Positions 17,505 to 54,211 of a stretch of 64,000 bases of DNA are shown in pieces. The position numbers and the translations under genes are program-made. Where the stretch lies: the IMG/VR virus record IMGVR_UViG_3300043331_000728; one strand, 5' to 3'. Below the pieces are notes generated by a model. It was not told the DNA's origin, did no database searches, and saw only the letters and a list, made by a program, of their open reading frames with translations. The stretch's first letter is position 1, and every line of letters starts with the position of its first letter. The stretch comes from a virus.

Positions 17505-17732
17505 TTATGCGGTATTACCGATCGGGCACGATTGGTTCACGCACCAGTATCCGTCGTAATACAAGGTGGGACCACCGCAGTATCCACACACTCGACACTG
17601 AATATCGTGTGGGCAGCGCCCGCTGTTGGCACAGGCGACATTCCTCAGATCCTCTATCTCATCTTCTTTTCTGGGCTTGTACCTATCCATCTTCGTAGGC
17701 GTAGTTCTGGAATATATCTGGGGCATCACCAC
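17505..17732 (-). CDS. small Cys-rich protein (not the main family)
   Basis: 75-aa ORF CPHDIQCRVCGYCGG...C. Confidence 0.3.
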   Translation of the reverse strand: MVMPQIYSRTTPTKMDRYKPRKEDEIEDLRNVACANSGRCPHDIQCRVCGYCGGPTLYYDGYWCVNQSCPIGNTA

Positions 17733-17958
17733 GCCGGTTTAGGCAGACTGAGCACCGAGCACGTTTCTCGCCTGGTTTGCCGGCCGATAAACACTTGCAA
17801 CAAATCGGCGGGTCCCCGTTGCCCCGGTAACAGAAGTGCCCGCAGTGAAAGAGCATCAACGCCTTGGCGTATTGCACGGCTATCTGATCTGGCTTTGGGT
17901 CGTACTCGATGCACAGATCTCCGCCGATCGCTTCGACTCGAAATTTCCTGGTGCTCAT
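17683..17958 (-). CDS. Cys-rich family member
   Basis: FHCGHFCYRGNGDPPICCKC...CSVC. Confidence 0.6.
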   Translation of the reverse strand: MSTRKFRVEAIGGDLCIEYDPKPDQIAVQYAKALMLFHCGHFCYRGNGDPPICCKCLSAGKPGEKRARCSVCLNRRGDAPDIFQNYAYEDG

Positions 17959-18401
17959 GAGAGCAACCTCGGTTGTGTAGGAGTGTGGTTCTTGCAGATC
18001 AAGCAGAAGCTTGTCGGTTTGAGAAGCCGACGCTTGAAGAAATCATCGCATCGACAGCAACGCCCGCTACCGCGCTGTTCATAGCAGGCGTGCTTACATC
18101 GGTAAATCATGAGTGAGCCGTAATAGCCATACACCTTATTAGCCTTCGGGCTCCACTGGATACGCATATGGGTGGGCTCGTTCGGCTTGGTGATCGCAAA
18201 GAACGGTAACGGCCCATCGTTGACACGCCCGATTGCGCTCAGGATATTGTGGATTTGTTGTGCGGTGGGCGCCGGCTTCTTAATCATGGCTTGTGGCTGC
18301 ACGATGTTCGGGATCGGAGGCTGGTGCTCGTAGCGGCCTTCTGTCCAGCCTTCGCCAGTGATGACATCCCACCCGCGCATATCGCCGTTGAACTCATCCA
18401 T
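17955..18401 (-). CDS. Cys-rich family member (variant CxHxC = CKHAC)
   Basis: YRCKHACYEQRGSGRCCRCDDF...CLIC. Confidence 0.55.
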   Translation of the reverse strand: MDEFNGDMRGWDVITGEGWTEGRYEHQPPIPNIVQPQAMIKKPAPTAQQIHNILSAIGRVNDGPLPFFAITKPNEPTHMRIQWSPKANKVYGYYGSLMIYRCKHACYEQRGSGRCCRCDDFFKRRLLKPTSFCLICKNHTPTQPRLLS

Positions 18402-18426
18402 GGTGTGGTAGCCCGTCAGGGACTCG

Positions 18427-18503
18427 TGGTAGCGCGCAGGGGAATCGAACCCCTATTGCTCCGCTTGAAGGGCGGATGTCCTATTCCGTTAGACGAGCGC
18501 GCC
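18427..18503 (-). tRNA. tRNA-Glu(TTC), tentative; apparent C33
   Basis: CCA-acceptor-T arm tggt|agcgcgc|agggg aatcgaa cccct; anticodon stem tccgc/gcgga loop ccttcaa. Confidence 0.5.
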
Positions 18504-18777
18504 TCGACCTTTTCCACGTTCTGATACGATGACAGGTGCCGCATACCACCTCGCATCGAGCAATCTCCTCAAGGATTACCTTGAGGCTTCTTCCCATCTG
18601 TTCAGCAACAGTACCACGCAACCGTGGCTTGATGTGGTCGAATTCTAGCCCAGCGTGATGTTTGTTGTATCCGCAATCAGTACAACCCAGCCGGATCTTT
18701 AACTTCTGAACGTGATCCTTGTTGTTCTTATACCGATTTCGGTAATAAGCAGCGATCGTTGCGTTATCCCACGGCAC
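18481..18777 (-). CDS. HNH homing-type endonuclease
   Basis: CTDCGY...EFDHIKP...CGTCHRIRT. Confidence 0.65.
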   Translation of the reverse strand: MPWDNATIAAYYRNRYKNNKDHVQKLKIRLGCTDCGYNKHHAGLEFDHIKPRLRGTVAEQMGRSLKVILEEIARCEVVCGTCHRIRTWKRSRRARLTE

Positions 18778-19036
18778 ATTTCTAAGATAGCCGTGTCTTA
18801 CCTCAGCGCAGAATCTTTGCGGGCCTTGCCAATCTCAGCCTCCCACCGCATCCTCATGTGCCAGTACTCGCGATCCATCTCGCTCCCTTGGAGCGGATGC
18901 CACTCGATGCAGGACCACCGACCGGGTGGGCACACGCGACTGGTGTCCTGATGCTCGATCCAGTGTTCGACGCCACGCTGGCCCCGAAACCCGACCTTGA
19001 CCATCCGAAGCCGCACTTCACGACCGCACCAGCAGT

Positions 19037-19297
19037 CTAACATGTTTTCCAGGGCAGTGGGATGTTGTGCTTGTTGAGCACCTGCTCCGCATCAAGAGCC
19101 CGCTTAACCCAGCCGTCACGGTCACGCCGGAGCCGCTCGTTTTCAGCGTGGGCGGCGTCTACCTCGGTGCGATGGGTCCAGTATTCAGCCACACGGCAGC
19201 GCGCTGACCACATCTCAGCGTCCGCCGCTTGCTTCTTAGCCTCGTCGAACCACTTTAGGCTGGACTCTTTCCACTCTTCCATCCCGAACTCGCTCAT
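19037..19297 (-). CDS. hypothetical protein
   Basis: 86-aa ORF. Confidence 0.3.
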   Translation of the reverse strand: MSEFGMEEWKESSLKWFDEAKKQAADAEMWSARCRVAEYWTHRTEVDAAHAENERLRRDRDGWVKRALDAEQVLNKHNIPLPWKTC

Positions 19298-19757
19298 ACA
19301 GGTACTCCAAGGACCAGCCGTAGCGCCGGTCCAGGCCTTTGGCTGCGCTCTCGTCCTTGAGGCCGTGCGGCCCGAAGAGCCGTTTGCGATTGTCCTCGAT
19401 GTCCGCGATCTTGACTCGCAGGCCGATAGGATGCTCGGCTGCTCGTCGCACGAATTCTTTATAGGTCTCTTTCCAGGATCCGTGGACGCCGCGCCTGGTC
19501 ACTGCTTCGATACCCTGGATTACATCCTTGTCGAAGCCGTGGACCTCGCGCAGCTCGTTGATCGAGTAGCACCGTCCAGCCTGGTCGGGGTCCTCGATGA
19601 TGTCGTGCATGACGGCCACCATGGCGTACTCGTCGCCGAAGTGTTTGACGGCATCCATGACGCGCAGTGGGTGGTAGATGTAGGGAAGGCCGGACTTGTC
19701 CATCACGTTCTCATGATGGATGGTGGCGATTACGATCGCCTTGGTGAGGTTCATCAC
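19236..19757 (-). CDS. small alarmone hydrolase (SpoT/Mesh1-like HD domain)
   Basis: HH...GLPYIYHPLRV...VMHDIIED...GIEAVTR matches RelA/SpoT HD hydrolase motif. Confidence 0.65.
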   Translation of the reverse strand: MMNLTKAIVIATIHHENVMDKSGLPYIYHPLRVMDAVKHFGDEYAMVAVMHDIIEDPDQAGRCYSINELREVHGFDKDVIQGIEAVTRRGVHGSWKETYKEFVRRAAEHPIGLRVKIADIEDNRKRLFGPHGLKDESAAKGLDRRYGWSLEYLYERVRDGRVERVQPKVVRRG

Positions 19758-19777
19758 CTTGTCTCCTGACTTTGTTT

Positions 19778-19996
19778 TTAGGGTAGCACTATTTCACCTC
19801 TTTCGGCAAGGTGGACGAGGAAGGTCGGCAACAGCGTCTCGGCGTGGAGGAACTCAATTCCGACGAGGTGGCCGTCCAGGTTGTAGTCCAACACCAGGCC
19901 GCCCTCGACCGGCACTGAGCGTGCCACCCGTGAGGTGCCGCTGGCAGTCAGGTAGAGATAGGCGAGTCCGTGTTCACGATCCCAGGCGAGTTTCAT
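19778..19996 (-). CDS. hypothetical protein
   Basis: 72-aa ORF. Confidence 0.3.
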   Translation of the reverse strand: MKLAWDREHGLAYLYLTASGTSRVARSVPVEGGLVLDYNLDGHLVGIEFLHAETLLPTFLVHLAERGEIVLP

Positions 19997-20008
19997 CGTT
20001 TTTTTGGT

Positions 20009-20086
20009 TGGTGGGTCGGGGGAGAATCGAACTCCCGTTTATACGGGGTAAAAGCCCGCTGCAACGCCAACGTTTGCTACCGACCC
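20009..20086 (-). tRNA. tRNA-Lys(TTT)
   Basis: tgg+t+gggtcgg+gggag aatcgaa ctccc; acceptor partner ccgaccc 20080-20086; loop cttttac. Confidence 0.65.
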
Positions 20087-20090
20087 GTTG

Positions 20091-20165
20091 TGGTGGCTCT
20101 GGGTGGAATCGAACCACCGATGGCGGCTTATGAGACCGCTGCCTTGACCTCTTGGCGACAGAGCC
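20091..20165 (-). tRNA. tRNA-Met(CAT)
   Basis: T arm ggtgg aatcgaa ccacc; acceptor ggctctg/cagagcc; anticodon stem gcggt/gccgc loop ctcataa. Confidence 0.65.
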
Positions 20166-20166
20166 A

Positions 20167-20241
20167 TGGTTGCAGGTCGGAGAATCGAACTCCGCTCCCG
20201 TGGGTTATGAGCCCAGGTGGGTCACCAGACCTTTACCTGCG
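20167..20241 (-). tRNA. tRNA-like, CAT anticodon (Met or Ile2), irregular D arm
   Basis: T arm cggag aatcgaa ctccg, acceptor tgcaggt/acctgcg, loop ctcataa; D-arm does not fold cleanly. Confidence 0.45.
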
Positions 20242-20245
20242 TCAA

Positions 20246-20321
20246 TGGTGGCGGTAGTGGGATTCGAACCCACGTGAAAGGCTTGAGGGGCCTCTAGCCT
20301 GGTCCGCTAGCTGATACCGCC
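20246..20321 (-). tRNA. tRNA, anticodon uncertain (possibly Glu CTC with C33)
   Basis: T arm gtggg attcgaa cccac; acceptor ggcggta/taccgcc. Confidence 0.5.
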
Positions 20322-20378
20322 TTAAGGTTTCGATGATAACCCGGATCGACATATTGCGCAAGGGGTCTCGTATTGCTT

Positions 20379-20603
20379 TCACCACTCGTACTTCAGCGGT
20401 GATTCGAGGTCACAGATCACACAGCCGGACGTTCCAGCGCAACAACAGCATGTGTCTCGGTTCCAATCATGACAAAAATGTAGGCATTTTGTTTTTAGAT
20501 AGAAATCTCGGAGTCTCGGTGAGTCAGAGAATCCTGACGCCACAATGGCAAAATTAAGATACTGATCCGTCAAGAGTCGGATCTCAATGATTTTTTTAAT
20601 CAT
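20379..20603 (-). CDS. Cys-rich family member
   Basis: KCLHFCHDWNRDTCCCCAGTSGCVICD. Confidence 0.6.
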   Translation of the reverse strand: MIKKIIEIRLLTDQYLNFAIVASGFSDSPRLRDFYLKTKCLHFCHDWNRDTCCCCAGTSGCVICDLESPLKYEW

Positions 20604-20811
20604 GGCAGATGCGGCAGCCAGCGCTGCCCCCGCATACGCAACACTTCCCGTTGCCCCACAGGTACCAACAGAAATGACCGCATCGGTGCAAAAAGATATA
20701 TTCGCCCGTACTGGAATATGAGATACCGATGCTGGTGCCTGTGCTCAGAGCCTTGTTCACCTTGAAGGTGTTCTTCTTACTTGAGATCATCAGAATCGCA
20801 GACGAGCGCAT
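20596..20811 (-). CDS. Cys-rich family member (start uncertain, ORF extends to 20904)
   Basis: HRCGHFCWYLWGNGKCCVCGGSAGCRICHD. Confidence 0.55.
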   Translation of the reverse strand: MRSSAILMISSKKNTFKVNKALSTGTSIGISYSSTGEYIFLHRCGHFCWYLWGNGKCCVCGGSAGCRICHD

Positions 20812-20951
20812 GCCCGACGATGCAGTCGCCCGGGAACAGGTAGGGGCCAGCGATCTTGGTGGCCTCCCGATTGAGCGGCAGCTCTTTACCTTTGCCGTCT
20901 TCATCGAAGATCATGATCTTGCCGTTCCCGACGCCGACAATCTCTATCAGG

Positions 20952-21677
20952 TCACACCTCAGCATTTGGTACAGCTCCGGCAGCGTCCATCCCTCGGTCT
21001 TGTTGGCTGGTTGAACTTCCCGTGTTTCCCCGGTCACTAGGTACAAGGTACCCATAGGACTGTCCTCCCGCGTTCTTGTAGGTCATCTTGAGCGCGTACA
21101 CGCCACGCATCCAGACTGCCTGCCGAGCAGCGTCCCATGTTGCATGATGCTCGATCCCGTAGAAATCTGATCGGTATGCGAACCCTTTGGCGTACGATCG
21201 GCAGTCAACCTCCTTACTTCGTCGCCATGGTGCCTTGCGTCCGAGGGCCTGGTACGATGAGGCGATCATAGTCAGATCGTAGGAGGTCGGGTTCGCCCAC
21301 AGCCAGACATCTGGCCCCTCGACGTAGTGCTGGAAGGCGTTGAGCGCCTCTCGGATGGGGTAGATCGGAGCGGCCCACAGGGCTTCCCGAGCAGCCTGAT
21401 TCGGTGAATCCGATTCGCCACCCATCCACCACTTGATGGTGCGCCCGTCGACCTTGAGCCCTGCCCGCATGCTGGAATCGATGTTGATGTTGCAGAAGAA
21501 GCCTGGAGCAACCTTGTGACCCAGCGCTACCGTGAATGCCTCCGCTGGCGTAATACACACGTCCGGCACCAATTTCTCCGTCGTGCCATCCAGTTCAAAA
21601 TCCACGGCGCCGATCTGAAGAATCACACCGTCTGGGCCTTCGCCCAGGCCTTCAATGTCGACCATCACATTTCTCAT
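20952..21677 (-). CDS. DEDDh 3'-5' exonuclease (DnaQ/RNase T-like)
   Basis: Exo I VDIEGLG, Exo II YDLTM, Exo III HHATWDA; start ATGA-coupled. Confidence 0.65.
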   Translation of the reverse strand: MRNVMVDIEGLGEGPDGVILQIGAVDFELDGTTEKLVPDVCITPAEAFTVALGHKVAPGFFCNINIDSSMRAGLKVDGRTIKWWMGGESDSPNQAAREALWAAPIYPIREALNAFQHYVEGPDVWLWANPTSYDLTMIASSYQALGRKAPWRRSKEVDCRSYAKGFAYRSDFYGIEHHATWDAARQAVWMRGVYALKMTYKNAGGQSYGYLVPSDRGNTGSSTSQQDRGMDAAGAVPNAEV

Positions 21678-21955
21678 GGCTCTCCTGTTATTTTTCTCCT
21701 CTTGCAACGTGGACACTCGAAGTACTGATTGCGTTGGTCCCAGGCCATGGTGATCTGGCAATGGAAGTCCCGACGCCAGCCGAAAGCGAGCTGTGTGAAT
21801 TCCTCGCGCGAGATGGTGGCTTCATCGACCAGTATCGCCACGCCGTTTCGTGTCCGAATCCCTTTGTGCCACTCGAACCACTCGAACATCAGGTGTCCAG
21901 CGTTCTGGGGTCGACCTGGGGCGCATGTATTGGGCAACCGCCTGTGATCCACCAC
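21674..21955 (-). CDS. hypothetical protein with C-terminal CPRC zinc knuckle
   Basis: 93-aa ORF. Confidence 0.3.
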   Translation of the reverse strand: MVDHRRLPNTCAPGRPQNAGHLMFEWFEWHKGIRTRNGVAILVDEATISREEFTQLAFGWRRDFHCQITMAWDQRNQYFECPRCKRRKITGEP

Positions 21956-22054
21956 CCGTCAGGCGGGAACGGAGGCCACTTCCCGTTGTTGTTGTCCATG
22001 CGAGCGCAAATGCACCCGAGCGCGAAAGCTTCCTTGCTACCCGGATTCGGGAGC

Positions 22055-22312: not shown

Positions 22313-22460
22313 CGCATTTCTTGATAACGCAACAATGCAGCAAGGCCCTGCATGATGGCGCGTTGATTCGCAATGATGGCGTGCAGTAGCACGTACTGAT
22401 TACTGCGGGCACTGCCGACCGGCACCTCTCGAAGCTGTCGTTCCAGCTCATCCAACGCAC

Positions 22461-22670: not shown

Positions 22671-22805
22671 GACATGCAGGGCATGGTACCAGTTGCCTTG
22701 TCGTATTGGTGGCCTTTTCGGTAGTGGCCACAGATCGACCGAGCACAGTACCAGCCTTTCACAAGGCGGATACCGCGCTCGATCGATCTTTCCAGGGTGG
22801 AACGC

Positions 22806-23425: not shown

Positions 23426-23446
23426 TCGAGGTGTTACTATACCACG

Positions 23447-23979: not shown

Positions 23980-24190
23980 CCGTCACCAAATCTGGTCCCT
24001 CTTCGTTTCCATAGCCGAACACGTTGTCGCCGATCTCCATCAAGAACTGGATGTTCAGCTCGTCGCACTTCTTCTCGGCCGTCGCTTTGCTGAAGCAGGC
24101 CTGGTGCGGACGCCCCGTGTCACCGTCCTCTCGATACCAGTACTCGTCGTTGTACTGCCAGCCGATCTCCTGGATCACGTAGATCTTCAC
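23804..24190 (-). CDS. hypothetical protein
   Basis: 128-aa ORF. Confidence 0.4.
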   Translation of the reverse strand: MKIYVIQEIGWQYNDEYWYREDGDTGRPHQACFSKATAEKKCDELNIQFLMEIGDNVFGYGNEEGPDLVTGVTERDFAAWINAAGGKADHEAQFYEWLLPRPMSEAIARRLLDFVTVRGYEVVELDVD

Positions 24191-24534
24191 GATCCGTCCT
24201 CCTCTGCGGTTTTCATGGTGCCCCCGGCGAGATTCGAACTCGCACTCTGCCCACTAGGATTGGGCTGCCTTAGTCCGTTTGGCCACGGGGGCTGATAGGC
24301 GTCATCTCGCTGACCACGACCCCATTTTTTTGTCGGGTCGCAGATAATACATTGCAGCGAACCAGGATTACACAAACAACATGTACGACTTCCGCTATAC
24401 CAGCAGAGGTGCAGACAATTCTTGATCTCAAATCCGACGGCGATACCGGGCTGCCATGGTGTGCCTCTGAGTCCGCATGTAACTCGGAGCGGTCCAAAAT
24501 GCATTCGTTCTACGATAAAAAGCTTTTTCATGGT
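24187..24534 (-). CDS. Cys-rich family member with long C-terminal tail overlapping tRNA-Arg(CCT)
   Basis: NCLHLCWYSGSRTCCLCNPGSLQCIICD; no stop until 24187. Confidence 0.5.
   Translation of the reverse strand, partial: TMKKLFIVERMHFGPLRVTCGLRGTPWQPGIAVGFEIKNCLHLCWYSGSRTCCLCNPGSLQCIICDPTKKWGRGQRDDAYQPPWPNGLRQPNPSGQSASSNLAGGTMKTAEEDGS
24206..24282 (-). tRNA. tRNA-Arg(CCT)
   Basis: T arm gcgag attcgaa ctcgc; acceptor gcccccg/cgggggc; AC stem gccca/tgggc loop atcctag. Confidence 0.6.
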
Positions 24535-31431: not shown

Positions 31432-32100
31432 CTACCAGAAACGTCTCCTGACATCGAGCAGGAAGTCGTTGACGCGACCGGGTTGCGGTGTGTGGTCGCA
31501 CTCGGCGGCGGCCAGGATTACCATCGCTTCCCACGAGCTGGTGGTGTCGATCACTTCACCCTTGGTCATACGGCCCTCTCGCCAGCGCTTGAGGATGTCG
31601 TACTCGACGCCGACCTGACTCATGTCGGACAGCAGCACGCCATCTTTGAGCAGATAGTAGCCCTGAACCAGGGTGCGCAGGTAGGCCACTGCATACTTGT
31701 GGCCGCGCTGATCCTTGTCATCCAGGAACTTCTTGCGCTGGTTCTGACCGTAGCCGATGAACGAGTCGCGCACGCCGATAGGATTCCAGATGCAGGGAAA
31801 CAGGGAGCGCACTGCGTCTCCATCTGGAGAGGACGAAACTAGAGGCGCTGTAAAAACCTCCAACACTGAGGGGTTGCAGTAGAGCGCCAATTCCAGGAAG
31901 TGGCGCAACTCCCAGCTGGTGTCGTCGTCCTTCTCGCCTTTGCTCTTGTCGGCCTCGACCCAGCCTGTGTCCTTGAGGCGCGCATTCAGCGAGAGCACGC
32001 TACTGGTACGGTGCAAGAACACCCCCCGATAGTCGTAGTCACTGGTCGGAGTCGCCAGACCATGTGCCCGTGATCCCACGAGGACTTTCAGGATCTGCAT
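31432..32100 (-). CDS. polymerase-beta-like nucleotidyltransferase domain protein
   Basis: minimal NTase motif GSRAHGLATPTSDYDYRGVF (GS...DxD). Confidence 0.5.
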   Translation of the reverse strand: MQILKVLVGSRAHGLATPTSDYDYRGVFLHRTSSVLSLNARLKDTGWVEADKSKGEKDDDTSWELRHFLELALYCNPSVLEVFTAPLVSSSPDGDAVRSLFPCIWNPIGVRDSFIGYGQNQRKKFLDDKDQRGHKYAVAYLRTLVQGYYLLKDGVLLSDMSQVGVEYDILKRWREGRMTKGEVIDTTSSWEAMVILAAAECDHTPQPGRVNDFLLDVRRRFW

Positions 32101-32350
32101 AGATCGGTTCGTATCCTTTCAGGCTGTAGAGGCAGATAAAGCATGGGTGTCTGCCACCAATGTGGCCGCGAGCCTTCCTGGAGCATATGCAGCAGCGGTC
32201 GTAGGTCGTGTCCTTACAGAAGTGGCGACAGGCGTGGAGCCGCAGGAACTGCTTGCAGTCACGAAACAATATCTCTACGCTGCGGAGTCCGGCCTGCTCC
32301 TGCGTGTGATAGAACCACAGCTTGACGCCGAACCGTCTTACTCCTGGCAC
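32039..32350 (-). CDS. Cys-rich family member
   Basis: HACRHFCKDTTYDRCCICSRK...HPCFICL. Confidence 0.55.
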   Translation of the reverse strand: MPGVRRFGVKLWFYHTQEQAGLRSVEILFRDCKQFLRLHACRHFCKDTTYDRCCICSRKARGHIGGRHPCFICLYSLKGYEPIYADPESPRGITGTWSGDSDQ

Positions 32351-34121: not shown

Positions 34122-34469
34122 TCAGTTCTCCAGTTCCTCGTGCCGCGCGTAATTGCGCGGGTTAGGGCCATGGTAGCAGATCTGGCACAGCCCGTATCCG
34201 GCCCGATCGTAACAAAGACAGCACAGGGCAAAACCGTGCTTGCCCTGAGCCGGCGCAAGACAGAAATGGTTGCATTGCTGCAAGTGGATCTCGTTGGTCA
34301 TCACGATCCTGCCGGCCTCGGTGTATGTATCGGGTGTATACTCATGCACCCTCACCGTCAGATTCATCCCGAAATTGTTGTGCTTTGCATCGACATACTT
34401 CTTGGTGACAACACCTGTGACCCGTCGCTGGAAAGCAGCCACACCCTTGAGAATACTCCTGCGGCTCAT
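34122..34469 (-). CDS. Cys-rich family member, inserted between nadV and nadM
   Basis: QCNHFCLAPAQGKHGFALCCLCYDRAGYGLCQICYHG; ATGA-coupled start. Confidence 0.55.
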   Translation of the reverse strand: MSRRSILKGVAAFQRRVTGVVTKKYVDAKHNNFGMNLTVRVHEYTPDTYTEAGRIVMTNEIHLQQCNHFCLAPAQGKHGFALCCLCYDRAGYGLCQICYHGPNPRNYARHEELEN

Positions 34470-35401: not shown

Positions 35402-36082
35402 TTAACACGAGCAGGAAAAAAAGGTGGCCTTCTTCTCCTCGACCTTGACGTGATAAATCGCCTCCCACGCTTCCCAGAAACGCTCCGCATGTTCTGGAAA
35501 TTCGTCCCGCCAACTCTCGGCGCCTCTTTGTACTTCATAACTCTCACTGTCGAGCCATCGCTGGGCAGCCCCCATCAGTTGCTCGACGGGGATGTGAAGC
35601 TCGGCAGCGATCTCAACCACAACGGCTCGCGCTTGCGCTTCCGTCATACTGAAATCGGGATGCGCCCATTCGTGACGCAGCGACTTGATGGAGCCTGGAT
35701 CCAGGAACATCCAGAATCGCTCCCTCGGCTGCACGGGTGCCGTCAGAAAGGGATCAACGATGCCGCTCGTCTTGGCTGCTTTGGCGCTGACCACGTTCTC
35801 CCCGGTCAGCCCGATCCGTTGACCAGGCTGCAAGGTCTCGAACGAAATCACAGGCGCCACCGCTACGTGAATGGCGTCCCGCTTCTGGTTTGTGGTGATG
35901 AGACGGCCGATGCCGATGTCAGACATGACGCCGCCATCCTTTCTTTTGGTACGGTATAGATTTGTCGGTATGAAAGGCCCAACAGATCGCGCATCGGCCG
36001 CTTCCACGACAGGAACAGCACTGGCTATGGATAACTCGACCACCGCTCGTGTACTCTTCTTGACTCCGACAGAAGTGACCAC
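35402..36082 (-). CDS. hypothetical protein
   Basis: 226-aa ORF. Confidence 0.35.
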   Translation of the reverse strand: MVTSVGVKKSTRAVVELSIASAVPVVEAADARSVGPFIPTNLYRTKRKDGGVMSDIGIGRLITTNQKRDAIHVAVAPVISFETLQPGQRIGLTGENVVSAKAAKTSGIVDPFLTAPVQPRERFWMFLDPGSIKSLRHEWAHPDFSMTEAQARAVVVEIAAELHIPVEQLMGAAQRWLDSESYEVQRGAESWRDEFPEHAERFWEAWEAIYHVKVEEKKATFFSCSC

Positions 36083-36191
36083 ACACCAGAATATGGACGT
36101 AGTTGGACTGGCTGCTCAGCGCCAGCTCGTCACCCCATCGAATGTAGCAATCGGCTGGTCCACGCGTTACATCGAACCTGATCCTCAACAC
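35919..36191 (-). CDS. Cys-rich family member
   Basis: VCGHFCRSQEEYTSGGRVIHSQCCSCRGSGRCAICW. Confidence 0.55.
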   Translation of the reverse strand: MLRIRFDVTRGPADCYIRWGDELALSSQSNYVHILVCGHFCRSQEEYTSGGRVIHSQCCSCRGSGRCAICWAFHTDKSIPYQKKGWRRHV

Positions 36192-38491: not shown

Positions 38492-38818
38492 TCAACGACG
38501 GAATGCGCGACAAATACGACAGTAATGCTCGCCCGATAGAGGAAGCGTACACACGCAACACGTTATGGCCCGATCTGCACAAAAATGGCCACAATGAGCC
38601 AAAAACACGAACATTTCACGATCATAATCGTAGATGCTCACCCACACGTGAGGGGCGAGAGCGTCGAGTTGAGAGACTTGAGATATGCCCGCCCTTATCG
38701 TCTTCGGCTGAGTTCCTTGAAGTGCTCCAATTCCTTGAGCCGAGCCGCTTCCTTCTCGGCCTGACTGATGATCGGTTCGACCTTCACCAGCTCGCCGGTC
38801 TTGTCGTCGACTTTCCAT
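38492..38818 (-). CDS. Cys-rich family member
   Basis: AHCGHFCADRAITCCVCTLPLSGEHYCRIC. Confidence 0.55.
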   Translation of the reverse strand: MESRRQDRRAGEGRTDHQSGREGSGSAQGIGALQGTQPKTIRAGISQVSQLDALAPHVWVSIYDYDREMFVFLAHCGHFCADRAITCCVCTLPLSGEHYCRICRAFRR

Positions 38819-39059: not shown

Positions 39060-39358
39060 TTGCGCACAAGTTTATCCATATCTCTGCACGCACAACAAGT
39101 CCCAAGGTGTTTTACGCCGAAGTTCCAGCATATGTGTCCACACCTCATGAGCAACATATACGCATGCAATTTAGAAGAGTGTTCCCATCGGCAGATCCAT
39201 TCTAGCGCGTTATCATGCTTGACGACCCCAAAGCGTGGAGCGGATGGATCACTCATTTCGTCACACTCCAGCAGACGCGACAATGATCCTGTGAAGGCAA
39301 TTGTGAGCAGCGACAACAATTGAATAACGTCGACTCGTTGCGGCAAAAATGCGAGCAA
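39005..39358 (-). CDS. Cys-rich family member
   Basis: MRCGHICWNFGVKHLGTCCACRDMDKLVRKCALCD. Confidence 0.55.
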   Translation of the reverse strand: MLAFLPQRVDVIQLLSLLTIAFTGSLSRLLECDEMSDPSAPRFGVVKHDNALEWICRWEHSSKLHAYMLLMRCGHICWNFGVKHLGTCCACRDMDKLVRKCALCDFTLPPNLPQIKQ

Positions 39359-39561
39359 GAATACAGAAACAACGCATTAGGTGGTTGTGCGGACCAGTGT
39401 CCCGGACCCAACCGAATTCTGTCGCGTGTCAAAATGATGACGTAGGGTTGATCATGGTCTACAAATACCTTGAACAGTCGTGAATCCGTCGTGCCCACAG
39501 TAGGTTTTGAAGTGCCGCCCCTTGCCTGCGTGCCAGATCCAGATCTCAACCTCGCAGCCAT
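39253..39561 (-). CDS. Cys-rich family member
   Basis: YSCSHFCRNESTLFNCCRCSQLPSQDHCRVCW. Confidence 0.55.
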   Translation of the reverse strand: MAARLRSGSGTQARGGTSKPTVGTTDSRLFKVFVDHDQPYVIILTRDRIRLGPGHWSAQPPNALFLYSCSHFCRNESTLFNCCRCSQLPSQDHCRVCWSVTK

Positions 39562-39735: not shown

Positions 39736-40086
39736 CTACCTCAACTGAGTACCCTGCCTTTTCAAGGATGGTCCTTGCTTCTCGTTGGATGCGATTACCT
39801 TTTGCTGTTGTGTTCTGCCGCCTTGACAGCACACGTCGCACAGCGAATCTACCGTGGCGCACAGACAACAACGGTCCATATGTGCCACGTTGTGACCGCT
39901 CCGACAGAAGTGCCCGCACGCAGACAACGATAGCAGAATATTCCAGTTACCGCCGATGAAGATCGAACCCTCTCGATTACCTGGATTAGTGGGGCCACCA
40001 TGGAAGAAGCCGGCGGCTGCTTCACCCCATCCGACGATCCCGTACCTATCTAGCCCTTGCCACCACCGAGTAATCTTGAACTTCAT
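39736..40086 (-). CDS. Cys-rich family member
   Basis: ACGHFCRSGHNVAHMDRCCLCATVDSLCDVCC. Confidence 0.55.
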   Translation of the reverse strand: MKFKITRWWQGLDRYGIVGWGEAAAGFFHGGPTNPGNREGSIFIGGNWNILLSLSACGHFCRSGHNVAHMDRCCLCATVDSLCDVCCQGGRTQQQKVIASNEKQGPSLKRQGTQLR

Positions 40087-48421: not shown

Positions 48422-48685
48422 TCATCGCGGTCTCGTACACACATAACATCGATCGGTACATCGATAGGTCTCGGCGCATACGCAACAGATGTGTACGATA
48501 TCGATAAGTCTCGTCGCACCTCTTGGAGTGGGGCGCCGACAAAAATGCCGACATGCACACAGGTAGATCTGGTCTCGCTCCCGATCTGCCCAGTCATTTT
48601 TTGGCCAGTTGATCGCCAGCGTATTGGCCCCGGTTATGTACGCATTGATACGTCGTTTCATGGTCGTCCACGGCAGATCATGCAA
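48422..48685 (-). CDS. Cys-rich family member
   Basis: CACRHFCRR...ICCVCAETYRCTDRCYVC. Confidence 0.55.
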   Translation of the reverse strand: MHDLPWTTMKRRINAYITGANTLAINWPKNDWADRERDQIYLCACRHFCRRPTPRGATRLIDIVHICCVCAETYRCTDRCYVCTRPR

Positions 48686-48921
48686 CGCGCGGGTGCTTCA
48701 GTGTGACAACAACAACACACACGAGGTCCCCTGTCATTCGACCACGATGTACCCCGTACCGGATCAGCACAGAAATGCAAGCACGGTAACAAGTACACAC
48801 GGTGATGGCTTGTTGCTTTGCGTGTAATCAGATCGGGCCAATAGATCACAACGGTGTGGTCGTATCGTTGGAAGAGCGCAAACCCAGTACCATCGACACG
48901 CTGCCGCACTAACTTAGCCAC
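48658..48921 (-). CDS. Cys-rich family member
   Basis: PCLHFCADP...VCCCCHTEAPARCMIC. Confidence 0.55.
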   Translation of the reverse strand: MAKLVRQRVDGTGFALFQRYDHTVVIYWPDLITRKATSHHRVYLLPCLHFCADPVRGTSWSNDRGPRVCCCCHTEAPARCMICRGRP

Positions 48922-48961: not shown

Positions 48962-49204
48962 TCATCGTCTGGGCGGGCGTCTGCATATCGCGCATAGCTC
49001 GTAGTTCAGTACGCGATAACACAAACAACACAATGTCCCATGAACACCGAACCAGCTGAGCCGACACAGATGCGAACATCCGCAGATGTAGGTATTGATC
49101 TTGGATGTGGTCCAGTTATTGAGGACCACTTTCAACGACCCACTCGGCTGTGGTTCCACCACGAATACGGGTGTCATCACCAGCTCCGGCGACAGAGGTT
49201 GCAC
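48962..49204 (-). CDS. Cys-rich family member
   Basis: CGCSHLCRLSWFGVHGTLCCLCYRVLNYELCAIC. Confidence 0.55.
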   Translation of the reverse strand: MQPLSPELVMTPVFVVEPQPSGSLKVVLNNWTTSKINTYICGCSHLCRLSWFGVHGTLCCLCYRVLNYELCAICRRPPRR

Positions 49205-49473
49205 GGTATCGTGTTACTCGGGAACGGTGGTAAATGTTGCCGTCGACACTGACAGCACCAACTGCCTCGCTGCGGCTCGATGAACGTCCAGCACGCATAA
49301 CAGAAGTGATTGCACGTGCAGATATAGACTATCGTGTGGCCATCATCATTAGATACTCTGAGACCGAACCAGCTTATGCGCGCTTCAATCCTACCTGGCA
49401 TATTGAGCAGGGTTGGGGTTGAGGTGAGAGGTCGAAACCGACACCTACACCTGGACTGAACGTGCCACGGCAC
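49177..49473 (-). CDS. Cys-rich family member
   Basis: CTCNHFCYACWTFIEPQRGSWCCQCRR...CNLC. Confidence 0.55.
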   Translation of the reverse strand: MPWHVQSRCRCRFRPLTSTPTLLNMPGRIEARISWFGLRVSNDDGHTIVYICTCNHFCYACWTFIEPQRGSWCCQCRRQHLPPFPSNTIPCNLCRRSW

Positions 49474-49634
49474 CGGCAGCAGACGCCGCTGCGGTCGTCA
49501 GGCTCGTGTTGCACTGACACGACCCGACAAAAGTGCTTACACGCACTGGCAACACGGGCTGTCTGTTCGATCGATGCCCCCCATGCTACGCCAGTGCCGA
49601 TGTCATGCACGTCCATTCGAAAGAACTTCTTCAC
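49374..49634 (-). CDS. Cys-rich family member
   Basis: ACKHFCRVVSVQHEPDDRSGVCCRCRG...CSIC. Confidence 0.55.
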   Translation of the reverse strand: MKKFFRMDVHDIGTGVAWGASIEQTARVASACKHFCRVVSVQHEPDDRSGVCCRCRGTFSPGVGVGFDLSPQPQPCSICQVGLKRA

Positions 49635-50248
49635 GGAAATGCTTTGAAGCTAGCTGCATTACAGCCGCCGATCAAGAGCACAAGCAAGAAAGCGAATAGG
49701 AAGATGCAGGACAAGATCTGACGATCGCCGTCACCTGCCACCGCGTACTCGACCTTGTATTCTTTGGCCCCGAACCACTTGCCGTCTGTCTTGGTGAGGA
49801 CACGTTGTGGTTGGCATGTGCGCCGGTAGAAGTAGATGATGACTCCGAGCCCGAACAACGTCAGGAGTAGAACGATACCAGAACGCATCATCTCGCTCCC
49901 GAACAGACGCCAGCCCACCAGGAACATGGTGAAGCGGCCGACGTTGGTGGTCCCGAACTTCTCGGCGTTGTCCACCACTGCACCCAGGGAAGCGTTGACG
50001 GCAGCGCCCACTTCCTTGCCGACACCCACCCACTTGCTCGCGCTCTCGGGGGTGGGCACCACCTTCTCGACCACCTTCTCGACGGTCGAGGGCTGCTGCT
50101 TGCCCTTGTTGATGGCGTCGACCACTCCGCTGCGGAGCCGTGGGTCCACGTCCTTGAGATCCACCTCCACCTTCTGCGCGTAGCCAAAGGCGGGAATGCC
50201 GTTCACGATGAGCGCGATGATGAGCGCGATCCGCGTTACGCGGGACAT
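49631..50248 (-). CDS. membrane protein
   Basis: signal/TM at N-terminus and C-terminal TM helices. Confidence 0.45.
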   Translation of the reverse strand: MSRVTRIALIIALIVNGIPAFGYAQKVEVDLKDVDPRLRSGVVDAINKGKQQPSTVEKVVEKVVPTPESASKWVGVGKEVGAAVNASLGAVVDNAEKFGTTNVGRFTMFLVGWRLFGSEMMRSGIVLLLTLFGLGVIIYFYRRTCQPQRVLTKTDGKWFGAKEYKVEYAVAGDGDRQILSCIFLFAFLLVLLIGGCNAASFKAFP

Positions 50249-50481
50249 GTCTTTCCTCCTATCGAACAGATTGCGCACTTTCCAGGAGCGTCATTGCACG
50301 CGCAGCATATCGCTTTGTCGCCGGAGGCCACCACTGCGTGCTCGCAGAAATGCTTGCAGTGTGCCAGCCACACGTACTCATTGAACTCGGTGTTGTCCTG
50401 GTCAGTGATCTTTCGTAGCCACAACAACCCACACGAGCCGTCATCGTGTGCCGAGAACGAGTATGTGCTGACTGGCCGCAT
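50236..50481 (-). CDS. Cys-rich family member
   Basis: AHCKHFCEHAVVASGDKAICCACNDAPGKCAIC. Confidence 0.55.
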   Translation of the reverse strand: MRPVSTYSFSAHDDGSCGLLWLRKITDQDNTEFNEYVWLAHCKHFCEHAVVASGDKAICCACNDAPGKCAICSIGGKTCPA

Positions 50482-52174: not shown

Positions 52175-52659
52175 CGTCGTGTTCGAATGAAGTACTTCAC
52201 CCGCCCTTCGACGGCTCTGGCCATACCCTTCTTGTCGCCCTCAATCTCGGCGTTATTGTAGCGATCGGCGTATTGCTGCGGCCAAGCCTCGACGTACCAG
52301 AGGGAACGAGCCTCATGATAGTCGAGTCCGAGGGCTGCTGCCGCCACATCGCCGTGATCAAGGTGTTGCAGTAGCCATTCGCCGGAGCCCGTGAAGTGCT
52401 TGATGACGATTGGCCGCAACGCTTTCGGGAGCCGGCGGACCGTCATGGACTCAGTGCCCGGCTTGATGCCGAGATGAATGGTGATGTGACCGGCGAGACA
52501 GGCCACCGCCCCGCAGTATGGACGAGGCCGCCTGGGCACATCACTATTCTTGAGGTGGCTGTGAGTCGACCAGCCCTCCATGCGGAAGGTCTCGGGGTAC
52601 TTCTTGATAGCGGCCACAGCCTTCAACAGCAACGAACGTGCTCGTCCTTTGATCTTCAT
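52171..52659 (-). CDS. hypothetical protein
   Basis: start MKIKGRAR ATGA-coupled to upstream Cys-family gene. Confidence 0.35.
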   Translation of the reverse strand: MKIKGRARSLLLKAVAAIKKYPETFRMEGWSTHSHLKNSDVPRRPRPYCGAVACLAGHITIHLGIKPGTESMTVRRLPKALRPIVIKHFTGSGEWLLQHLDHGDVAAAALGLDYHEARSLWYVEAWPQQYADRYNNAEIEGDKKGMARAVEGRVKYFIRTRR

Positions 52660-52928
52660 GTGCGCTCCTCCTTGTGTGGGTCGGACAGGGATACCGAACA
52701 AATTCGACAGGGCTTGGCGCGGCGTCTTGAATCCCTGCTTCTGGGCATGTACCCACGTCTTTCGTAGAAGCATTTGCAGCAGTATCCACCCATCCGTGAA
52801 CCATGCCAAGCACACCAATGTCCACACGTATGTTTGATGGACACTTCTTGCTCTTGCTTAGGTGTGTAGTACGGCATGTAGTAGATGCCGAGATTGCGAG
52901 TCGTGTTGAGGTGTGTCCTGAACCTCAC
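52656..52928 (-). CDS. Cys-rich family member (CGHWC variant)
   Basis: TCGHWCAWHGSRMGGYCCKC...CRIC. Confidence 0.55.
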   Translation of the reverse strand: MRFRTHLNTTRNLGIYYMPYYTPKQEQEVSIKHTCGHWCAWHGSRMGGYCCKCFYERRGYMPRSRDSRRRAKPCRICSVSLSDPHKEERT

Positions 52929-53128
52929 AAGCCTGGCCTCGTCGTGCAGATTTTACACCGCCTCGTAGGCGAGTTCCGGGCGCAGACGCAGCATTTCTGC
53001 GCTCCGTCGCCGGCGCCCACCGTACAGAAGTGCGAGCACTGGCGCAGGATGAACCATCCTGTCTTGATTAGGACGGTGATGTTGCCGCACTGGTTCCGTT
53101 CGACGCGAAACCTGACTCGTTCATTCAT
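52925..53128 (-). CDS. Cys-rich family member
   Basis: QCSHFCTVGAGDGAQKCCVCARNSPTRRCKIC. Confidence 0.55.
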   Translation of the reverse strand: MNERVRFRVERNQCGNITVLIKTGWFILRQCSHFCTVGAGDGAQKCCVCARNSPTRRCKICTTRPGL

Positions 53129-53369
53129 TGCCTACCCCGGACAACAGGTTCCCTTGTAGGCAGAGGCGGCAGACGCCACCAGCCAAGTCCGTCGTGCAGC
53201 ATGTGCAGCACAGTGATTCTAGCGGTTTGCGACACCAATGACCGCAGCGTTTCAATCGCACGCTTCTAAAGGGGCCACGCCCATTCTCACGCCACCTGAC
53301 CAACAGAAAGACTCCTCGATTCCGATCAGCAGCGAACATGGTCTCGAATGGACGTGGCATGCTATTCAC
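53121..53369 (-). CDS. Cys-rich family member
   Basis: RCGHWCRKPLESLCCTCCTTDLAGGVCRLC. Confidence 0.55.
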   Translation of the reverse strand: MNSMPRPFETMFAADRNRGVFLLVRWRENGRGPFRSVRLKRCGHWCRKPLESLCCTCCTTDLAGGVCRLCLQGNLLSGVGNE

Positions 53370-53614
53370 TTCGTGTCGACGGGGGTCTCGTCGACCTGGA
53401 CGGTCATGGTCACGCCGCCTTCGACGGTGTGGCTGGCGCTGACAACTCTGAGGACGTTGAGCTTGGTGGCGCGCTTCAAATCCTCCGCGCTCATGGTCAT
53501 GGTCTTGGTGGTGACGATTTGCATGCGAGGTTCCCTCCTTTCTGTGTGTGGGCTAGAAGCGAGCAAGTAGACGTAACGCCCGGTCGAAGATCGTGACGGC
53601 CACTGCGAGCGCAA
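53366..53614 (-). CDS. hypothetical protein
   Basis: 82-aa ORF, likely shorter internal start. Confidence 0.3.
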   Translation of the reverse strand: MRSQWPSRSSTGRYVYLLASSPHTERREPRMQIVTTKTMTMSAEDLKRATKLNVLRVVSASHTVEGGVTMTVQVDETPVDTK

Positions 53615-53661
53615 CGATGGTGCCGATGAGAGTGATGAGGTTGCGTACCATTCGTTCCCCT

Positions 53662-53889
53662 TCAGTACCCGTCATCAGTGACCACGACCAGGCACAGGTA
53701 GTACCCGTACATGACGGACGTGATCGATTCCAGTCCTTGTGGATGCTTGAGGGTGGCCAGGTACTCGTTGACCTGGTGTTCGACGCTGGGGTTATTGGCG
53801 CCCGCCCCGTGCGGCGTCACCACTGAGCCGGCGAAGATCTTGACCTGTTTCATGGTGTTTTCACCTCCATCAGGCGGAGTCCGTCGCAC
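53662..53889 (-). CDS. hypothetical protein
   Basis: 75-aa ORF. Confidence 0.3.
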   Translation of the reverse strand: MRRTPPDGGENTMKQVKIFAGSVVTPHGAGANNPSVEHQVNEYLATLKHPQGLESITSVMYGYYLCLVVVTDDGY

Positions 53890-54001
53890 TCACAGGTTTT
53901 GTGGTACATGCATACCCCGTACTCGAACACGGTCTTGTCCTTGTCGGTGCGCTGCGACTGCACGAAGTGGGTGTCGATGGGGTGCCCGCATTGACAGGTC
54001 T

Positions 54002-54211
54002 TCATGCTGCCTCCTCAGGGGTCCGGCGACAGATCCGACAGTAGCCGGACGTGTAGTGGCTTTTCGTATATGCACACGGGCAGCACATCACGCCGCCATA
54101 CACGCAGAAGTGCCCGCAGGCAGCCAGGTGGATGGGGCTCGTCATCTGGGGGTGCAAGATGAACACCGCCCCGTATTGATAATCCTTGATGGTGACGAAG
54201 AAGTTCCTCAT
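54002..54211 (-). CDS. Cys-rich family member
   Basis: AACGHFCVYGGVMCCPCAYTKSHYTSGYCRIC. Confidence 0.55.
   Translation of the reverse strand: MRNFFVTIKDYQYGAVFILHPQMTSPIHLAACGHFCVYGGVMCCPCAYTKSHYTSGYCRICRRTPEEAA

Follow-up and report, generated by a model that had tools for sequence, protein, structure and literature searches.

Twenty-three copies of one cysteine-rich module

The window, i.e., the whole 64-kb stretch of metagenome-derived phage DNA analysed here, carries the signature C-x-H-x-C-x(6-17)-CC-x-C-x(5-20)-C-x-[ILV]-C in exactly 23 ORFs, 22 on the (-) strand and 1 on the (+) strand. A six-frame regular-expression scan placed the 22 in-frame (-) matches within 17743-54118 and the (+) match at 6790-6873, and found none in 50 shuffled versions of the window. 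The copies together occupy about a tenth of the window and encode proteins of 64-148 aa (median 83 aa), sizes that rest on provisional starts and depend on the start codon picked.

6679..7053, (+): family copy, the sole one on this strand; motif CGHFCVILIDRPVCCECSDRIDSPCEIC at 6790-6873; HMM score 43.8 bits; lies between an SPFH-like gene and a dUTPase gene, its 59-aa tail overlapping the dUTPase start (6929); closest relative P0013 (45% identity)
17683..17958, (-): family copy, 91 aa; motif at 17743-17844; second gene of a two-gene array, overlapping the upstream copy in the ATGA manner; same sequence as database protein P0004
17955..18401, (-): family copy; motif CKHACYEQRGSGRCCRCDDFFKRRLLKPTSFCLIC at 17994-18098; identical to P0005; long extension at the N-terminus, giving 148 aa if read from the first ATG (shorter versions possible)
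20379..20603, (-): family copy, 74 aa; motif at 20412-20486; HMM score 37.5 bits
20596..20790, (-): family copy, 64 aa; motif CGHFCWYLWGNGKCCVCGGSAGCRIC at 20605-20682; start provisional (20811 in the first-pass annotation); protein stops two residues past the motif; AlphaFold model m586dc197de4f
24187..24531, (-): family copy; motif at 24340-24417; open frame runs on through tRNA-Arg(CCT), 24216-24292
32039..32350, (-): family copy; motif at 32132-32230; overlaps the start of an RlaP-like gene (31432-32100)
34122..34469, (-): family copy; motif at 34176-34274; identical to P0003; sandwiched by an NMNAT/Nudix gene (34466-35347) and a NAMPT gene (32730-34121)
35919..36191, (-): family copy; motif at 35982-36083; HMM score 42.3 bits; immediately downstream of a VWA/DUF2201-like gene (36195-37343)
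38492..38818, (-): family copy; motif CGHFCADRAITCCVCTLPLSGEHYCRIC at 38510-38593; start uncertain (38818 or 38647); immediately upstream of an ATPase gene (37340-38446), a position also occupied by copies on contig L195
39005..39256, (-): family copy; motif at 39047-39142; in the three-gene array 39005-40086; ATGA overlap with the next copy
39253..39561, (-): family copy; motif at 39271-39357; same array
39736..40086, (-): family copy, 116 aa; motif at 39829-39918; same array; identical to P0012
48422..48661, (-): family copy; motif at 48437-48553; last gene of the five-gene array 48422-49616; immediately upstream of a 362-aa gene (47120-48208)
48658..48921, (-): family copy; motif at 48673-48783; same array; ATGA overlap
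48962..49177, (-): family copy; motif at 48983-49078; same array
49177..49401, (-): family copy; motif at 49192-49314; same array; 1-base overlap with the next gene
49374..49616, (-): family copy; motif at 49398-49541; first gene of the same array (GTG at 49634 in the first-pass annotation)
50236..50481, (-): single family copy; motif CKHFCEHAVVASGDKAICCACNDAPGKCAIC at 50266-50358
52656..52877, (-): family copy; motif at 52698-52826; in the three-gene array 52656-53360
52925..53128, (-): family copy, 67 aa; motif CSHFCTVGAGDGAQKCCVCARNSPTRRCKIC at 52946-53038; same array; top HMM score (48.8 bits); one possible start only; AlphaFold model m690b9b348ac8
53121..53360, (-): family copy; motif at 53160-53246; same array; 8-base overlap with the next gene
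54002..54211, (-): single family copy, 69 aa; motif at 54029-54118; same sequence as P0001, annotated 'hypothetical protein' in JGI/IMG (contig of 71,727 bp)

A profile HMM made from the motif cores was searched against the window frames. From the complete set of 1522 stop-to-stop frames (25 aa or longer), it returned exactly the 23 copies, at 37.5-48.8 bits, with the next best frame at 9.8 bits. Since all copies score at least 37 bits and every other frame falls below 10, the window holds no further degenerate or shorter copies, including any of less than 60 aa. The regular-expression scan and the HMM agree on the family that the first-pass annotation had put at 23 or more Cys-rich ORFs; the four example peptides quoted there are all present where it placed them, the tandem arrays (17683-18401, 20379-20811, 39005-40086, 48422-49634, and 52656-53369) are real, and so is the single (+) copy at 6679. 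The fixed order of Cys and His also holds after alignment, seven Cys columns and one His column being invariant in MAFFT alignments A1 and A2.

The family extends beyond the window. An exhaustive HMMER search of 1.84e9 proteins gave 36 matches at E<1e-3, about 30 of them external, and all of the latter are small proteins with the same eight residues. Arrays of 2 to 7 copies occur on related soil and groundwater phage contigs (7 on L190 and on L192, 5 on L209/L210, 3 on L197, and 2 on L195), and the gene order is partly common to these contigs and the window, namely around genes 47120-48208 and 36195-38446; on L192-L194, a family array lies upstream of a ~55% identical homologue of gene 47120-48208. 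No match was found in Pfam, PHROGs, NCBIfam, PADLOC, the PDB, or deposited phage genomes, in line with the earlier remark that no named domain (here Pfam, PHROG, NCBIfam, or PADLOC) could be recognised. Collectively, the 23 ORFs are members of a real protein family that is previously undescribed and absent from the curated libraries searched.

The copies look like coding genes

Whether these frames carry a coding signal had been raised as a doubt, and the sequence speaks in favour of translation: the copies overlap each other in the ATGA manner, the own reading frame scores highest in 16 of the 23, Shine-Dalgarno-like sites precede several starts, and the same protein motif is kept on contigs spanning 41-72% GC. 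The 23 copies thus look like genuine coding frames. We consider it highly improbable that they are the untranslated by-product of a repeated DNA element, or else secreted disulfide-rich peptides or RiPP precursors. Such readings could draw on the codon-bias score of the copies, which is below that of long genes, on their lower GC3 (about 0.6 versus 0.72), and on the several copies that lack a clear Shine-Dalgarno site. However, the copies have diverged strongly at the DNA level, mixing TGC and TGT at the invariant Cys codons, and the motif lies in one frame only, always within an ORF co-oriented with its neighbours, besides being conserved as protein across the GC range given above. As for secretion and modification, none of the family proteins has a signal-peptide-like N-terminus, no peptide-modification enzyme was matched among the large neighbouring proteins scanned, and the invariant His speaks for metal binding and not for disulfides.

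A mini-domain with two putative metal sites

The first-pass annotation had described the N-terminal regions as differing between copies. This stands for the outermost ~20 residues, and two loops vary as well, but conservation is seen across the 16 residues that precede the first Cys, which make up a hydrophobic strand, a Gly-rich turn, and a second strand. The AlphaFold predictions that it had proposed place 3-4 N-terminal strands against the Cys module, with a beta-hairpin around C-x-H and a helix at CC-x-C. Given the conserved strands and their predicted packing, true variability appears confined to the outermost ~20 residues and the two loops. Each protein would then be essentially one mini-domain, in which the last strand of an N-terminal beta-sheet (h-x-h-x-x) leads into C-G-H-F-C, followed by a variable loop, CC-x-C opening a short helix, another variable loop, and C-x-[ILVM]-C.

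The constant order of the eight ligands had earlier been taken as a hint of a two-metal site, and the sequence comparisons favour this. The L210 arrays also include small relatives with C-G-H and the terminal C-x-x-C as their only retained positions, plus two that have C-x-x-C-G instead of C-G-H; no such one-site relative occurs in the window. Their existence, together with these swaps, suggests that the four retained positions act as one site and the others as an added unit: Cys1, His, and the final C-x-x-C pair (C1,H,C6,C7) would make up site A, and Cys2 would join the CC-x-C cysteines in site B (C2-C5). The eight residues most likely bind two zinc ions, each tetrahedrally, with the sites interleaved much as in a cross-brace.

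The choice of zinc deserves comment, since a stretch of <50 residues with seven Cys, some of them adjacent, and one His would suit Fe-S clusters as well. Viral sites annotated as zinc-binding are reported to be Fe-S after all, e.g., in the SARS-CoV-2 helicase (PMC10438387). A [4Fe-4S] or [2Fe-2S] cluster on Cys2 plus CC-x-C, or a 3Cys-1His cluster, would turn the family into redox- or oxygen-sensitive regulators akin to the WhiB-like (Wbl) proteins of actinophages, which are likewise small and basic. We judge this unlikely: Pfam and NCBIfam gave no match of any member to Whib or to an Fe-S family, the Wbl spacing C-x(n)-C-x2-C-x5-C is absent, and the site left in the one-site relatives is a classical two-knuckle one, 3Cys-1His or 4Cys, as is typical of structural zinc. 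The sole specific profile match of the family, too, is to a zinc finger.

A specific but sub-threshold resemblance to RING fingers

In hhalign, alignment A4 matched a RING profile validated on the PDB at 82.9% (P 9.2e-6, 37 columns), whereas reversed-sequence and other zinc-finger controls reached 0.3-7.6%. The register places CGH on C3/H4, the outer Cys of CC-x-C on C5/C6, and the last pair on C7/C8. The closest known kind is the IAP/MUL1-type RING finger, with a resemblance that is specific but sub-threshold (83%). Weak zf-C3HC4_3 matches occur in 6/52 members, with HMMER scores far below the Pfam cut-off, and a sub-threshold match to Prok-RING_1 (PF14446) in 1/52 (E 0.013). Classical RING-HC and RING-H2 profiles gave no match to the family, and fold searches were uninformative, with no structural match to RING. 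We rejected canonical RING identity, because the first RING C-x-x-C is absent and two additional invariant Cys are present. The earlier description, RING-like in ligand count but not in ligand order, fits these results.

RING ancestry is probable: the module would descend, in rewired form, from an IAP/MUL1-type, RING-like (binuclear treble-clef) finger whose N-terminal C-x-x-C knuckle has gone, with two neighbouring cysteines taken on in its stead. The same profile similarity to RING E3 domains could be taken to mean that the proteins are functional RING-type adaptors acting on E2-like enzymes, as E3 ligases or as decoys of bacterial ubiquitin-like conjugation defence. This seems very unlikely to us, as the N-terminal knuckle with its E2-contacting Ile is absent in 84/84 members, the Pro after the seventh RING ligand occurs in 3/84, Arg/Lys after the last Cys in 22/84, and no E1-, E2-, or ubiquitin-like gene was found among the window proteins scanned. 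With the E2-contacting residues missing, ubiquitin ligase activity is not expected.

A putative repertoire of diversified binders

The copies neighbour tRNA, NAD-salvage, RNA-repair, MarR, and DprA-like genes, and their products have a median pI of 9.0. Paralogues are 30-49% identical across the core, compared with 55-58% for flanking genes between related phages. In close pairs, the Cys module is identical and the changes lie in the N-terminal half, a hint of where they concentrate. We infer that the family comprises fast-diverging, zinc-stabilised binding modules in a phage accessory region, and a role in host takeover or counter-defence would fit the genomic setting, the extreme divergence, and the N-terminal substitutions. 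The 23 paralogues would be small, basic, cytoplasmic proteins in which the metal sites provide a rigid scaffold and the loops, outer N-terminus, and tails diverge quickly; expressed from non-structural accessory operons, this repertoire may be aimed, copy by copy, at different host (or phage) macromolecules.

Alternatively, the proteins could be small zinc-finger nucleic-acid binders, each paralogue with its own DNA or RNA site, serving as transcription or translation regulators, nucleoid factors, or RNA-binding factors. We regard this as rather unlikely. The family matches no DNA- or RNA-binding family and, outside the ligands, conserves no basic or aromatic residue from which a shared binding surface could be built; moreover, 23 separate regulators in 64 kb would be unusual, and no repeated operator-like DNA was noticed in passing. 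Taken as a whole, the reading of an undescribed, two-zinc, RING-derived family forming a diversified binder repertoire strikes us as evenly poised between right and wrong.

Comparison with known systems

The IAP/MUL1/MDM2-type RING (zf-C3HC4_3, PF13920), a binuclear cross-brace treble-clef, shares with the family a hydrophobic strand running into C-G-H, a C-x-x-C at the helix start (in the family, the outer two Cys of CC-x-C), C-x-[aliphatic]-C at the end, eight Cys/His ligands in all, and a compatible secondary structure, as predicted for the family. Unlike these RINGs, the family lacks the N-terminal C-x-x-C (0/84), has a His-to-Cys spacing of 1 (2-3 in RINGs), an added loop of 5-17 residues ahead of the C5/C6 equivalent, and two extra invariant Cys, does not conserve the E2-contact residues, and consists of stand-alone 65-115-aa phage proteins in multicopy arrays. 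Prok-RING_1 and similar families are likewise RING-like zinc fingers of prokaryotes and mobile elements, but differ in ligand order and retain the full C-x2-C...C-x2-C framework.

Wbl proteins of actinobacteria and their phages resemble the family as small, Cys-dependent, phage-encoded metalloproteins thought to work through host-protein binding; however, they are helical, carry [4Fe-4S] on four Cys in the spacing given above, are usually single-copy, and have no sequence match to the family (Pfam, NCBIfam). The one-site relatives on L210, single-site treble-clef/zinc-ribbon mini-proteins, share the array, size, N-terminal strands, and C-G-H...C-x-x-C frame of the family, give weak Pfam matches to zinc ribbon, treble-clef, and RING models, and differ in lacking Cys2 and the CC-x-C unit, such that they would hold one metal site where the family would hold two.

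Copy number and conservation of the Cys-rich family

A six-frame scan of the window yielded 23 in-frame matches to C-x-H-x-C...CC-x-C...C-x-x-C, compared with none in 50 shuffled versions of the window, with each of the two sub-motifs being overrepresented about 10-fold. All matches fall inside open frames that are co-directional with the neighboring genes. The plus strand contributes one of them (6790-6873), and the other 22 are spread over the minus strand from 17.7 to 54.1 kb. A profile built from the cores and run with filters off against the 1522 stop-to-stop frames (at least 25 aa) of the window retrieved the same 23 copies at 37.5-48.8 bits, followed by the next frame at 9.8 bits, and uncovered no hidden or degenerate further copies among these frames. 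The first-pass annotation, which described a family of at least 23 copies with a fixed order of Cys and His residues, is thereby confirmed, including the coordinates, the example peptides and the positions of the arrays. Upon alignment, eight columns, corresponding to 7 Cys and 1 His, are invariant. In addition, the His is followed by a near-invariant Phe (48 of 58 cores counted) and the last Cys is preceded by an aliphatic residue. The family accounts for 9.9% of the window.

Evidence that the copies are genes

The strongest argument for genes is that the protein pattern is kept on unrelated DNA backgrounds of 41-72% GC; the invariant Cys codons are a mixture of TGC and TGT, and the remaining DNA has diverged. 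Codon bias and start sites also carry a coding signal. The annotated frame is the best of the six by codon usage in 16 of the 23 copies, where about 4 would be expected by chance. The codon-usage scores fall below those of long genes, which is expected, the training set having few Cys codons. The starts of several copies have GGAG-like sites akin to those preceding the RNR, dUTPase and other clear genes, and ATGA overlaps are found at three junctions within the arrays (other overlaps span 1-28 bases). Five of the copies are present as predicted proteins in a public collection; the three whose records were consulted are JGI/IMG "hypothetical protein" entries in single-member clusters, on a 71,727-bp contig. 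A promoter and terminator scan over 38-55 kb did not rise above the shuffled expectation and is uninformative on operon structure. A noncoding repeat was considered and rejected, as was a secreted disulfide peptide or RiPP.

Overlaps of family copies with a tRNA gene and with the dUTPase gene are as follows:

24187-24531 (-), family copy with a frame running 50 codons past the motif (24187-24339), through the same-strand tRNA-Arg(CCT) at 24216-24292
6679-7053 (+), family copy whose last 125 bases (6929-7053) lie within the dUTPase gene but in a different frame; the dUTPase start at 6929 has a good GGGAGGAG site

For the former, either tRNA sequence specifies the C-terminal tail or the transcript is severed ahead of its stop codon during tRNA processing. 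For the plus-strand copy, its closest relative, database protein P0013, also has a long tail starting with ISVP after the last Cys, and therefore the C-terminal tail may be real.

Genomic setting

The window, a phage-like genome segment, includes a rightward and a leftward block, the latter containing 22 of the family copies. Features of note are the following:

1-17.5 kb, rightward block: ThyX-like, RtcB-like, nuclease, SPFH, dUTPase, methyltransferase and RNR genes
13623-13949 (+), other small Cys-rich ORF outside the family, 108 aa, four C-x-x-C pairs
17505-17732 (-), other small Cys-rich ORF outside the family, 75 aa, CxxC-like knuckles
17.5-54 kb, leftward block: RlaP, Rv2179c-like exoribonuclease, MarR-like and DprA-like genes, together with 13 tRNA genes in all and the other features listed next
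17955-18401, family copy starting just downstream of tRNA-Glu(TTC) 18427-18503
18481-18777 (-), HNH-endonuclease-like ORF overlapping the same tRNA-Glu(TTC) by 23 bases
18427-30806, 12 tRNAs
30824-30899 (-), tRNA-Cys(GCA)
32730-34121 (-), NAMPT
34122-34469, family copy
34466-35347 (-), NMNAT-like/Nudix
36195-38446 (-), ATPase (Walker A/B, phrog_1297) and VWA/DUF2201-like partner
63126-63749, DnaB-like gene, past the leftward block and near the right end of the window

No structural genes were identified among the window proteins scanned. Megablast of 25 kb of the window against deposited phages produced a single stretch of similarity, of 163 bp (12488-12650, +; 84% identity), which lies within the adenine methyltransferase gene and involves two Methanoculleus (archaeal) viruses; at the DNA level, the deposited phage genomes include no close relative.

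Cys codons number 178 in the family, or 8.5% of its codons, compared with 1.2% in twenty long genes, and the phage tRNA-Cys(GCA) may therefore serve the family. NAMPT and the NMNAT-like/Nudix gene form an NAD-salvage pair, with a family copy located exactly between them; such pairs have been linked to countering NAD-depleting defenses. The ATPase/VWA pair is conserved, with family copies alongside, in three diverged phages of 41-60% GC, namely, the window, L195 and the groundwater contig L210 (4904-7062), and in the latter two, the copies flank homologues of the window pair. The L210 homologue of the VWA/DUF2201-like protein carries an HExxH motif. MoxR/VWA-type pairs function in metal-cofactor insertion, and, by analogy, it is conceivable that this pair is linked to metal loading of the Cys-rich family.

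Relatives in other contigs and apparent turnover of the family

An exhaustive HMMER search of 1.84 billion representative proteins (E<1e-3) returned 36 matches, including 5 of the window's own proteins, 1 repeat-protein false positive, 1 truncated sequence and about 30 others. These external relatives are 51-116 aa long and each contains all eight residues. A word-indexed protein search missed such kin, with no matches for the alignment of window copies (A1) and 3 for the wider family alignment (A4), because the family is too short and diverged for the index. Contigs carrying relatives were reached through three of the external proteins and a specific DNA pattern.

Contigs with family members outside the window
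L190: 4.7 kb, 58% GC, 7 copies
L192: 6.5 kb, 58% GC, 7 copies
L209 and L210: Hainich groundwater, 41% GC, 5 copies each
L197: 3 copies
L195: 2 copies
Several soil contigs: 63-68% GC, 1 copy each
Two Rokubacteria-binned contigs and one Armatimonadota chromosome: 1 copy each

The Armatimonadota chromosome (OY781964.1, complete) encodes a 78-aa member (L212:2596-2832, +; CGHFCIADSLLLVCCRCLLKFPECPVC), which adjoins small ORFs and a 392-aa ORF. An integrated element may be marked by this copy, which could also give a clue to a host. No family members were present in 80 IMG/VR loci gathered via the neighboring RNR gene, a DNA-pattern scan of IMG/VR gave low-complexity false matches only, and, when two members were queried by tblastn, none of the 50,697 deposited phage genomes matched.

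Gene order is in part shared between these contigs and the window. In L192-L194, an array is located directly upstream of a ~55% identical homologue of the window gene 47120-48208, as is the window array 48422-49616 relative to that gene. At these shared positions, the family members resemble the window copies no more than they resemble any other member. Best pairwise identities among the window copies are 30-49%, for the core only. Three adjacent pairs are one another's best matches, a trace of tandem duplication. The flanks are thus conserved, while the family itself is quick to diverge or turn over. In the few close pairs, changes cluster in the N-terminal half and the Cys module is identical; L209_9977 and L210_1247 differ by 7.5 nonsynonymous and 0.5 synonymous changes, counts too small for significance, and one close pair has a dN/dS of 0.21.

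Domain architecture and proposed partition of the ligands

When 84 nonredundant members are anchored on Cys1, the first of the invariant residues, position -3 is hydrophobic in 88% and position -5 in 76%, positions -10/-11 are Gly-rich and positions -12 to -16 hydrophobic, with conservation fading past about -17. The distance from the start to Cys1 has a median of 38 residues, the two loops are 5-17 and 5-20 residues long, and the pI has a median of 9.0. Two AlphaFold models (pLDDT 69.5 and 70.7) are in agreement: the N-terminal part forms three strands, a hairpin surrounds C-x-H, a short helix begins at CC-x-C, and the last C-x-x-C lies at a helical turn. As modeled, each protein consists of a single small domain with constant ligands and a constant beta-hairpin, whereas variation affects the loops, the outer N-terminus and the tail. 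The variable N-terminal head described originally is thus retained for the outer N-terminus, but not for the conserved, strand-forming positions up to about -17.

The groundwater contig L210 (1519-4911 and 7618-7839, -) contains 5 full members mixed with about 8 relatives of 52-62 aa, which have the same N-terminal strands, ...h-x-L-x-x-C-G-H and a single C-terminal C-x-x-C (e.g., HIHLAKCGHMFNTVQGDNEFFNCSECVHK). In two others, C-x-x-C-G replaces x-x-C-G-H, and one intermediate reads C-G-H-I-C ... C-I-N-C ... C-I-V-C, with C-I-N-C in place of CC-x-C. The L210 arrays appear to grade from one-site into two-site fingers; no one-site forms were found in the window. Given that the short relatives keep only C-G-H and the last C-x-x-C, Cys1, His and the last Cys pair behave as a self-sufficient four-ligand site (site A), whereas Cys2 and CC-x-C come and go as a unit (site B). 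Profile comparison of the full and one-site groups provides a weak link (P 0.0019), in the strand-CGH segment. An Fe-S cluster may take the place of zinc in this scaffold.

Comparison with known families

No significant match was found in Pfam, PHROGs (best E 0.24; 10 members scanned), NCBIfam or PADLOC (1 of 52 members, E 0.044), in PDB sequences, where a sequence-profile search gave only a chance-level match to the RanBP2 zinc finger, or in phage records; nor did a literature search return a description of the family, which is in line with the original remark that no named domain was recognized. WhiB-like (Wbl) Fe-S proteins have four Cys arranged as C-x(n)-C-x2-C-x5-C, a spacing absent from the family alignments, and this candidate was rejected, there being no Whib match in Pfam or NCBIfam either. 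In HNH nucleases, or His-Me fingers, a catalytic His and Asn/His/Asp metal ligands are located in a beta-beta-alpha motif; in the family, a single His is the only invariant non-Cys residue, with no conserved Asn, Asp or second His and no HNH matches, and this candidate was likewise rejected. Metallothioneins contain ~20-30% Cys, few aromatics and no regular secondary structure, and were rejected for a family with 8.5% Cys codons, a near-invariant Phe and predicted beta strands; one of 52 members has a weak match to Metallothi_Euk2.

The RING finger is the closest candidate. The family does not conform to the canonical framework C-x2-C ... C-x-H-x(2-3)-C-x2-C ... C-x2-C, and C-x-x-C upstream of the motif occurs in none of 84 members. 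Six of 52 members match Pfam zf-C3HC4_3 weakly (best E 0.095), below the gathering cut-off of 27 bits (7-8 bits for the two matches seen in detail), one match pairing residues 15-55 with profile positions 13-46 of 49; a single member of the 52 weakly matches Prok-RING_1. The E2-binding residues are not kept: the first knuckle with its Ile is absent, a Pro after ligand 7 is present in 3 of 84 members and a basic R/K after ligand 8 in 22 of 84.

For profile-profile comparison, we assembled a 12-sequence RING profile from the RING domains of IAP, MUL1, MDM2, MYLIP and similar proteins. Validated on the PDB, this profile recovered IAP, XIAP, MYLIP, MUL1, MDM2, CBL and TRIM21 at E 1e-24 to 1e-8. 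With hhalign, the 52-member family matched the IAP/MUL1/MDM2-type profile at 82.9% (P 9.2e-6, 37 columns), versus under 1% for the control of reversed RING sequences, 7% for classical RING-HC, 6% for RING-H2, 0.3% for PHD, 7.6% for rubredoxin and 0.7% for the zinc ribbon. In the resulting register, C-G-H corresponds to RING ligands 3 and 4, the outer Cys residues of CC-x-C to 5 and 6, and the last pair to 7 and 8. In RING fingers, ligands 3, 4, 7 and 8 form one zinc site, and 5 and 6 pair with the N-terminal knuckle; the former four coincide with site A, which L210 had pointed to independently of this comparison. The first-pass suggestion of a metal module with a RING-like number of ligands in a different order is broadly borne out, the specific match being to the IAP/MUL1/MDM2-type profile.

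Discussion

To our knowledge, phages seldom carry multigene families as large as this one, whose 23 paralogues make up ~10% of the window. The family is without a name, a structure or an isolate phage carrying it. Its members are small and their N-termini are not signal-peptide-like, which fits a cytoplasmic location. A candidate repertoire of scaffolded binding modules for host takeover or counterdefense is plausible, since the small size, the position among accessory genes (NAD salvage and RNA repair), the arrays, the strong divergence, the apparent turnover and the N-terminal clustering of changes in the few close pairs all fit such a role. With their basic pI (median 9.0), the proteins may alternatively bind nucleic acid. 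A narrower version of the binder repertoire, which we regard as rather unlikely, would be a rapidly diversifying library of zinc-scaffolded inhibitors, each directed at one host defense or housekeeping target, with arrays varying with the hosts and a RING-derived scaffold that has lost the first knuckle; if true, it would represent the phage counterpart of an immune repertoire.

If the proteins are zinc-stabilized binders, they would amount to a natural supply of mini-proteins (55-70 aa) directed against bacterial targets, which could help in the discovery of new counterdefense mechanisms and serve as a compact scaffold for engineering. In addition, the signature is easily searched for and marks a lineage of phages from soil and groundwater.

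Judging from profile and motif comparisons, the family is probably a RING-derived zinc finger with a new ligand topology, put to unusual multicopy use in phages. Together with what seems to be a route to a rewired two-site module, starting from either a one-site finger or a RING, the combination of C-x-H-x-C, CC-x-C and C-x-[ILVM]-C would represent a new case of zinc-finger evolution. Unlike in RING, the family has an H-to-C spacing of 1 and a loop of 5-17 residues between C-x-H-x-C and CC-x-C, and its two extra invariant Cys residues, at His+2 and in the middle of CC-x-C, are well placed to replace the missing RING knuckle.
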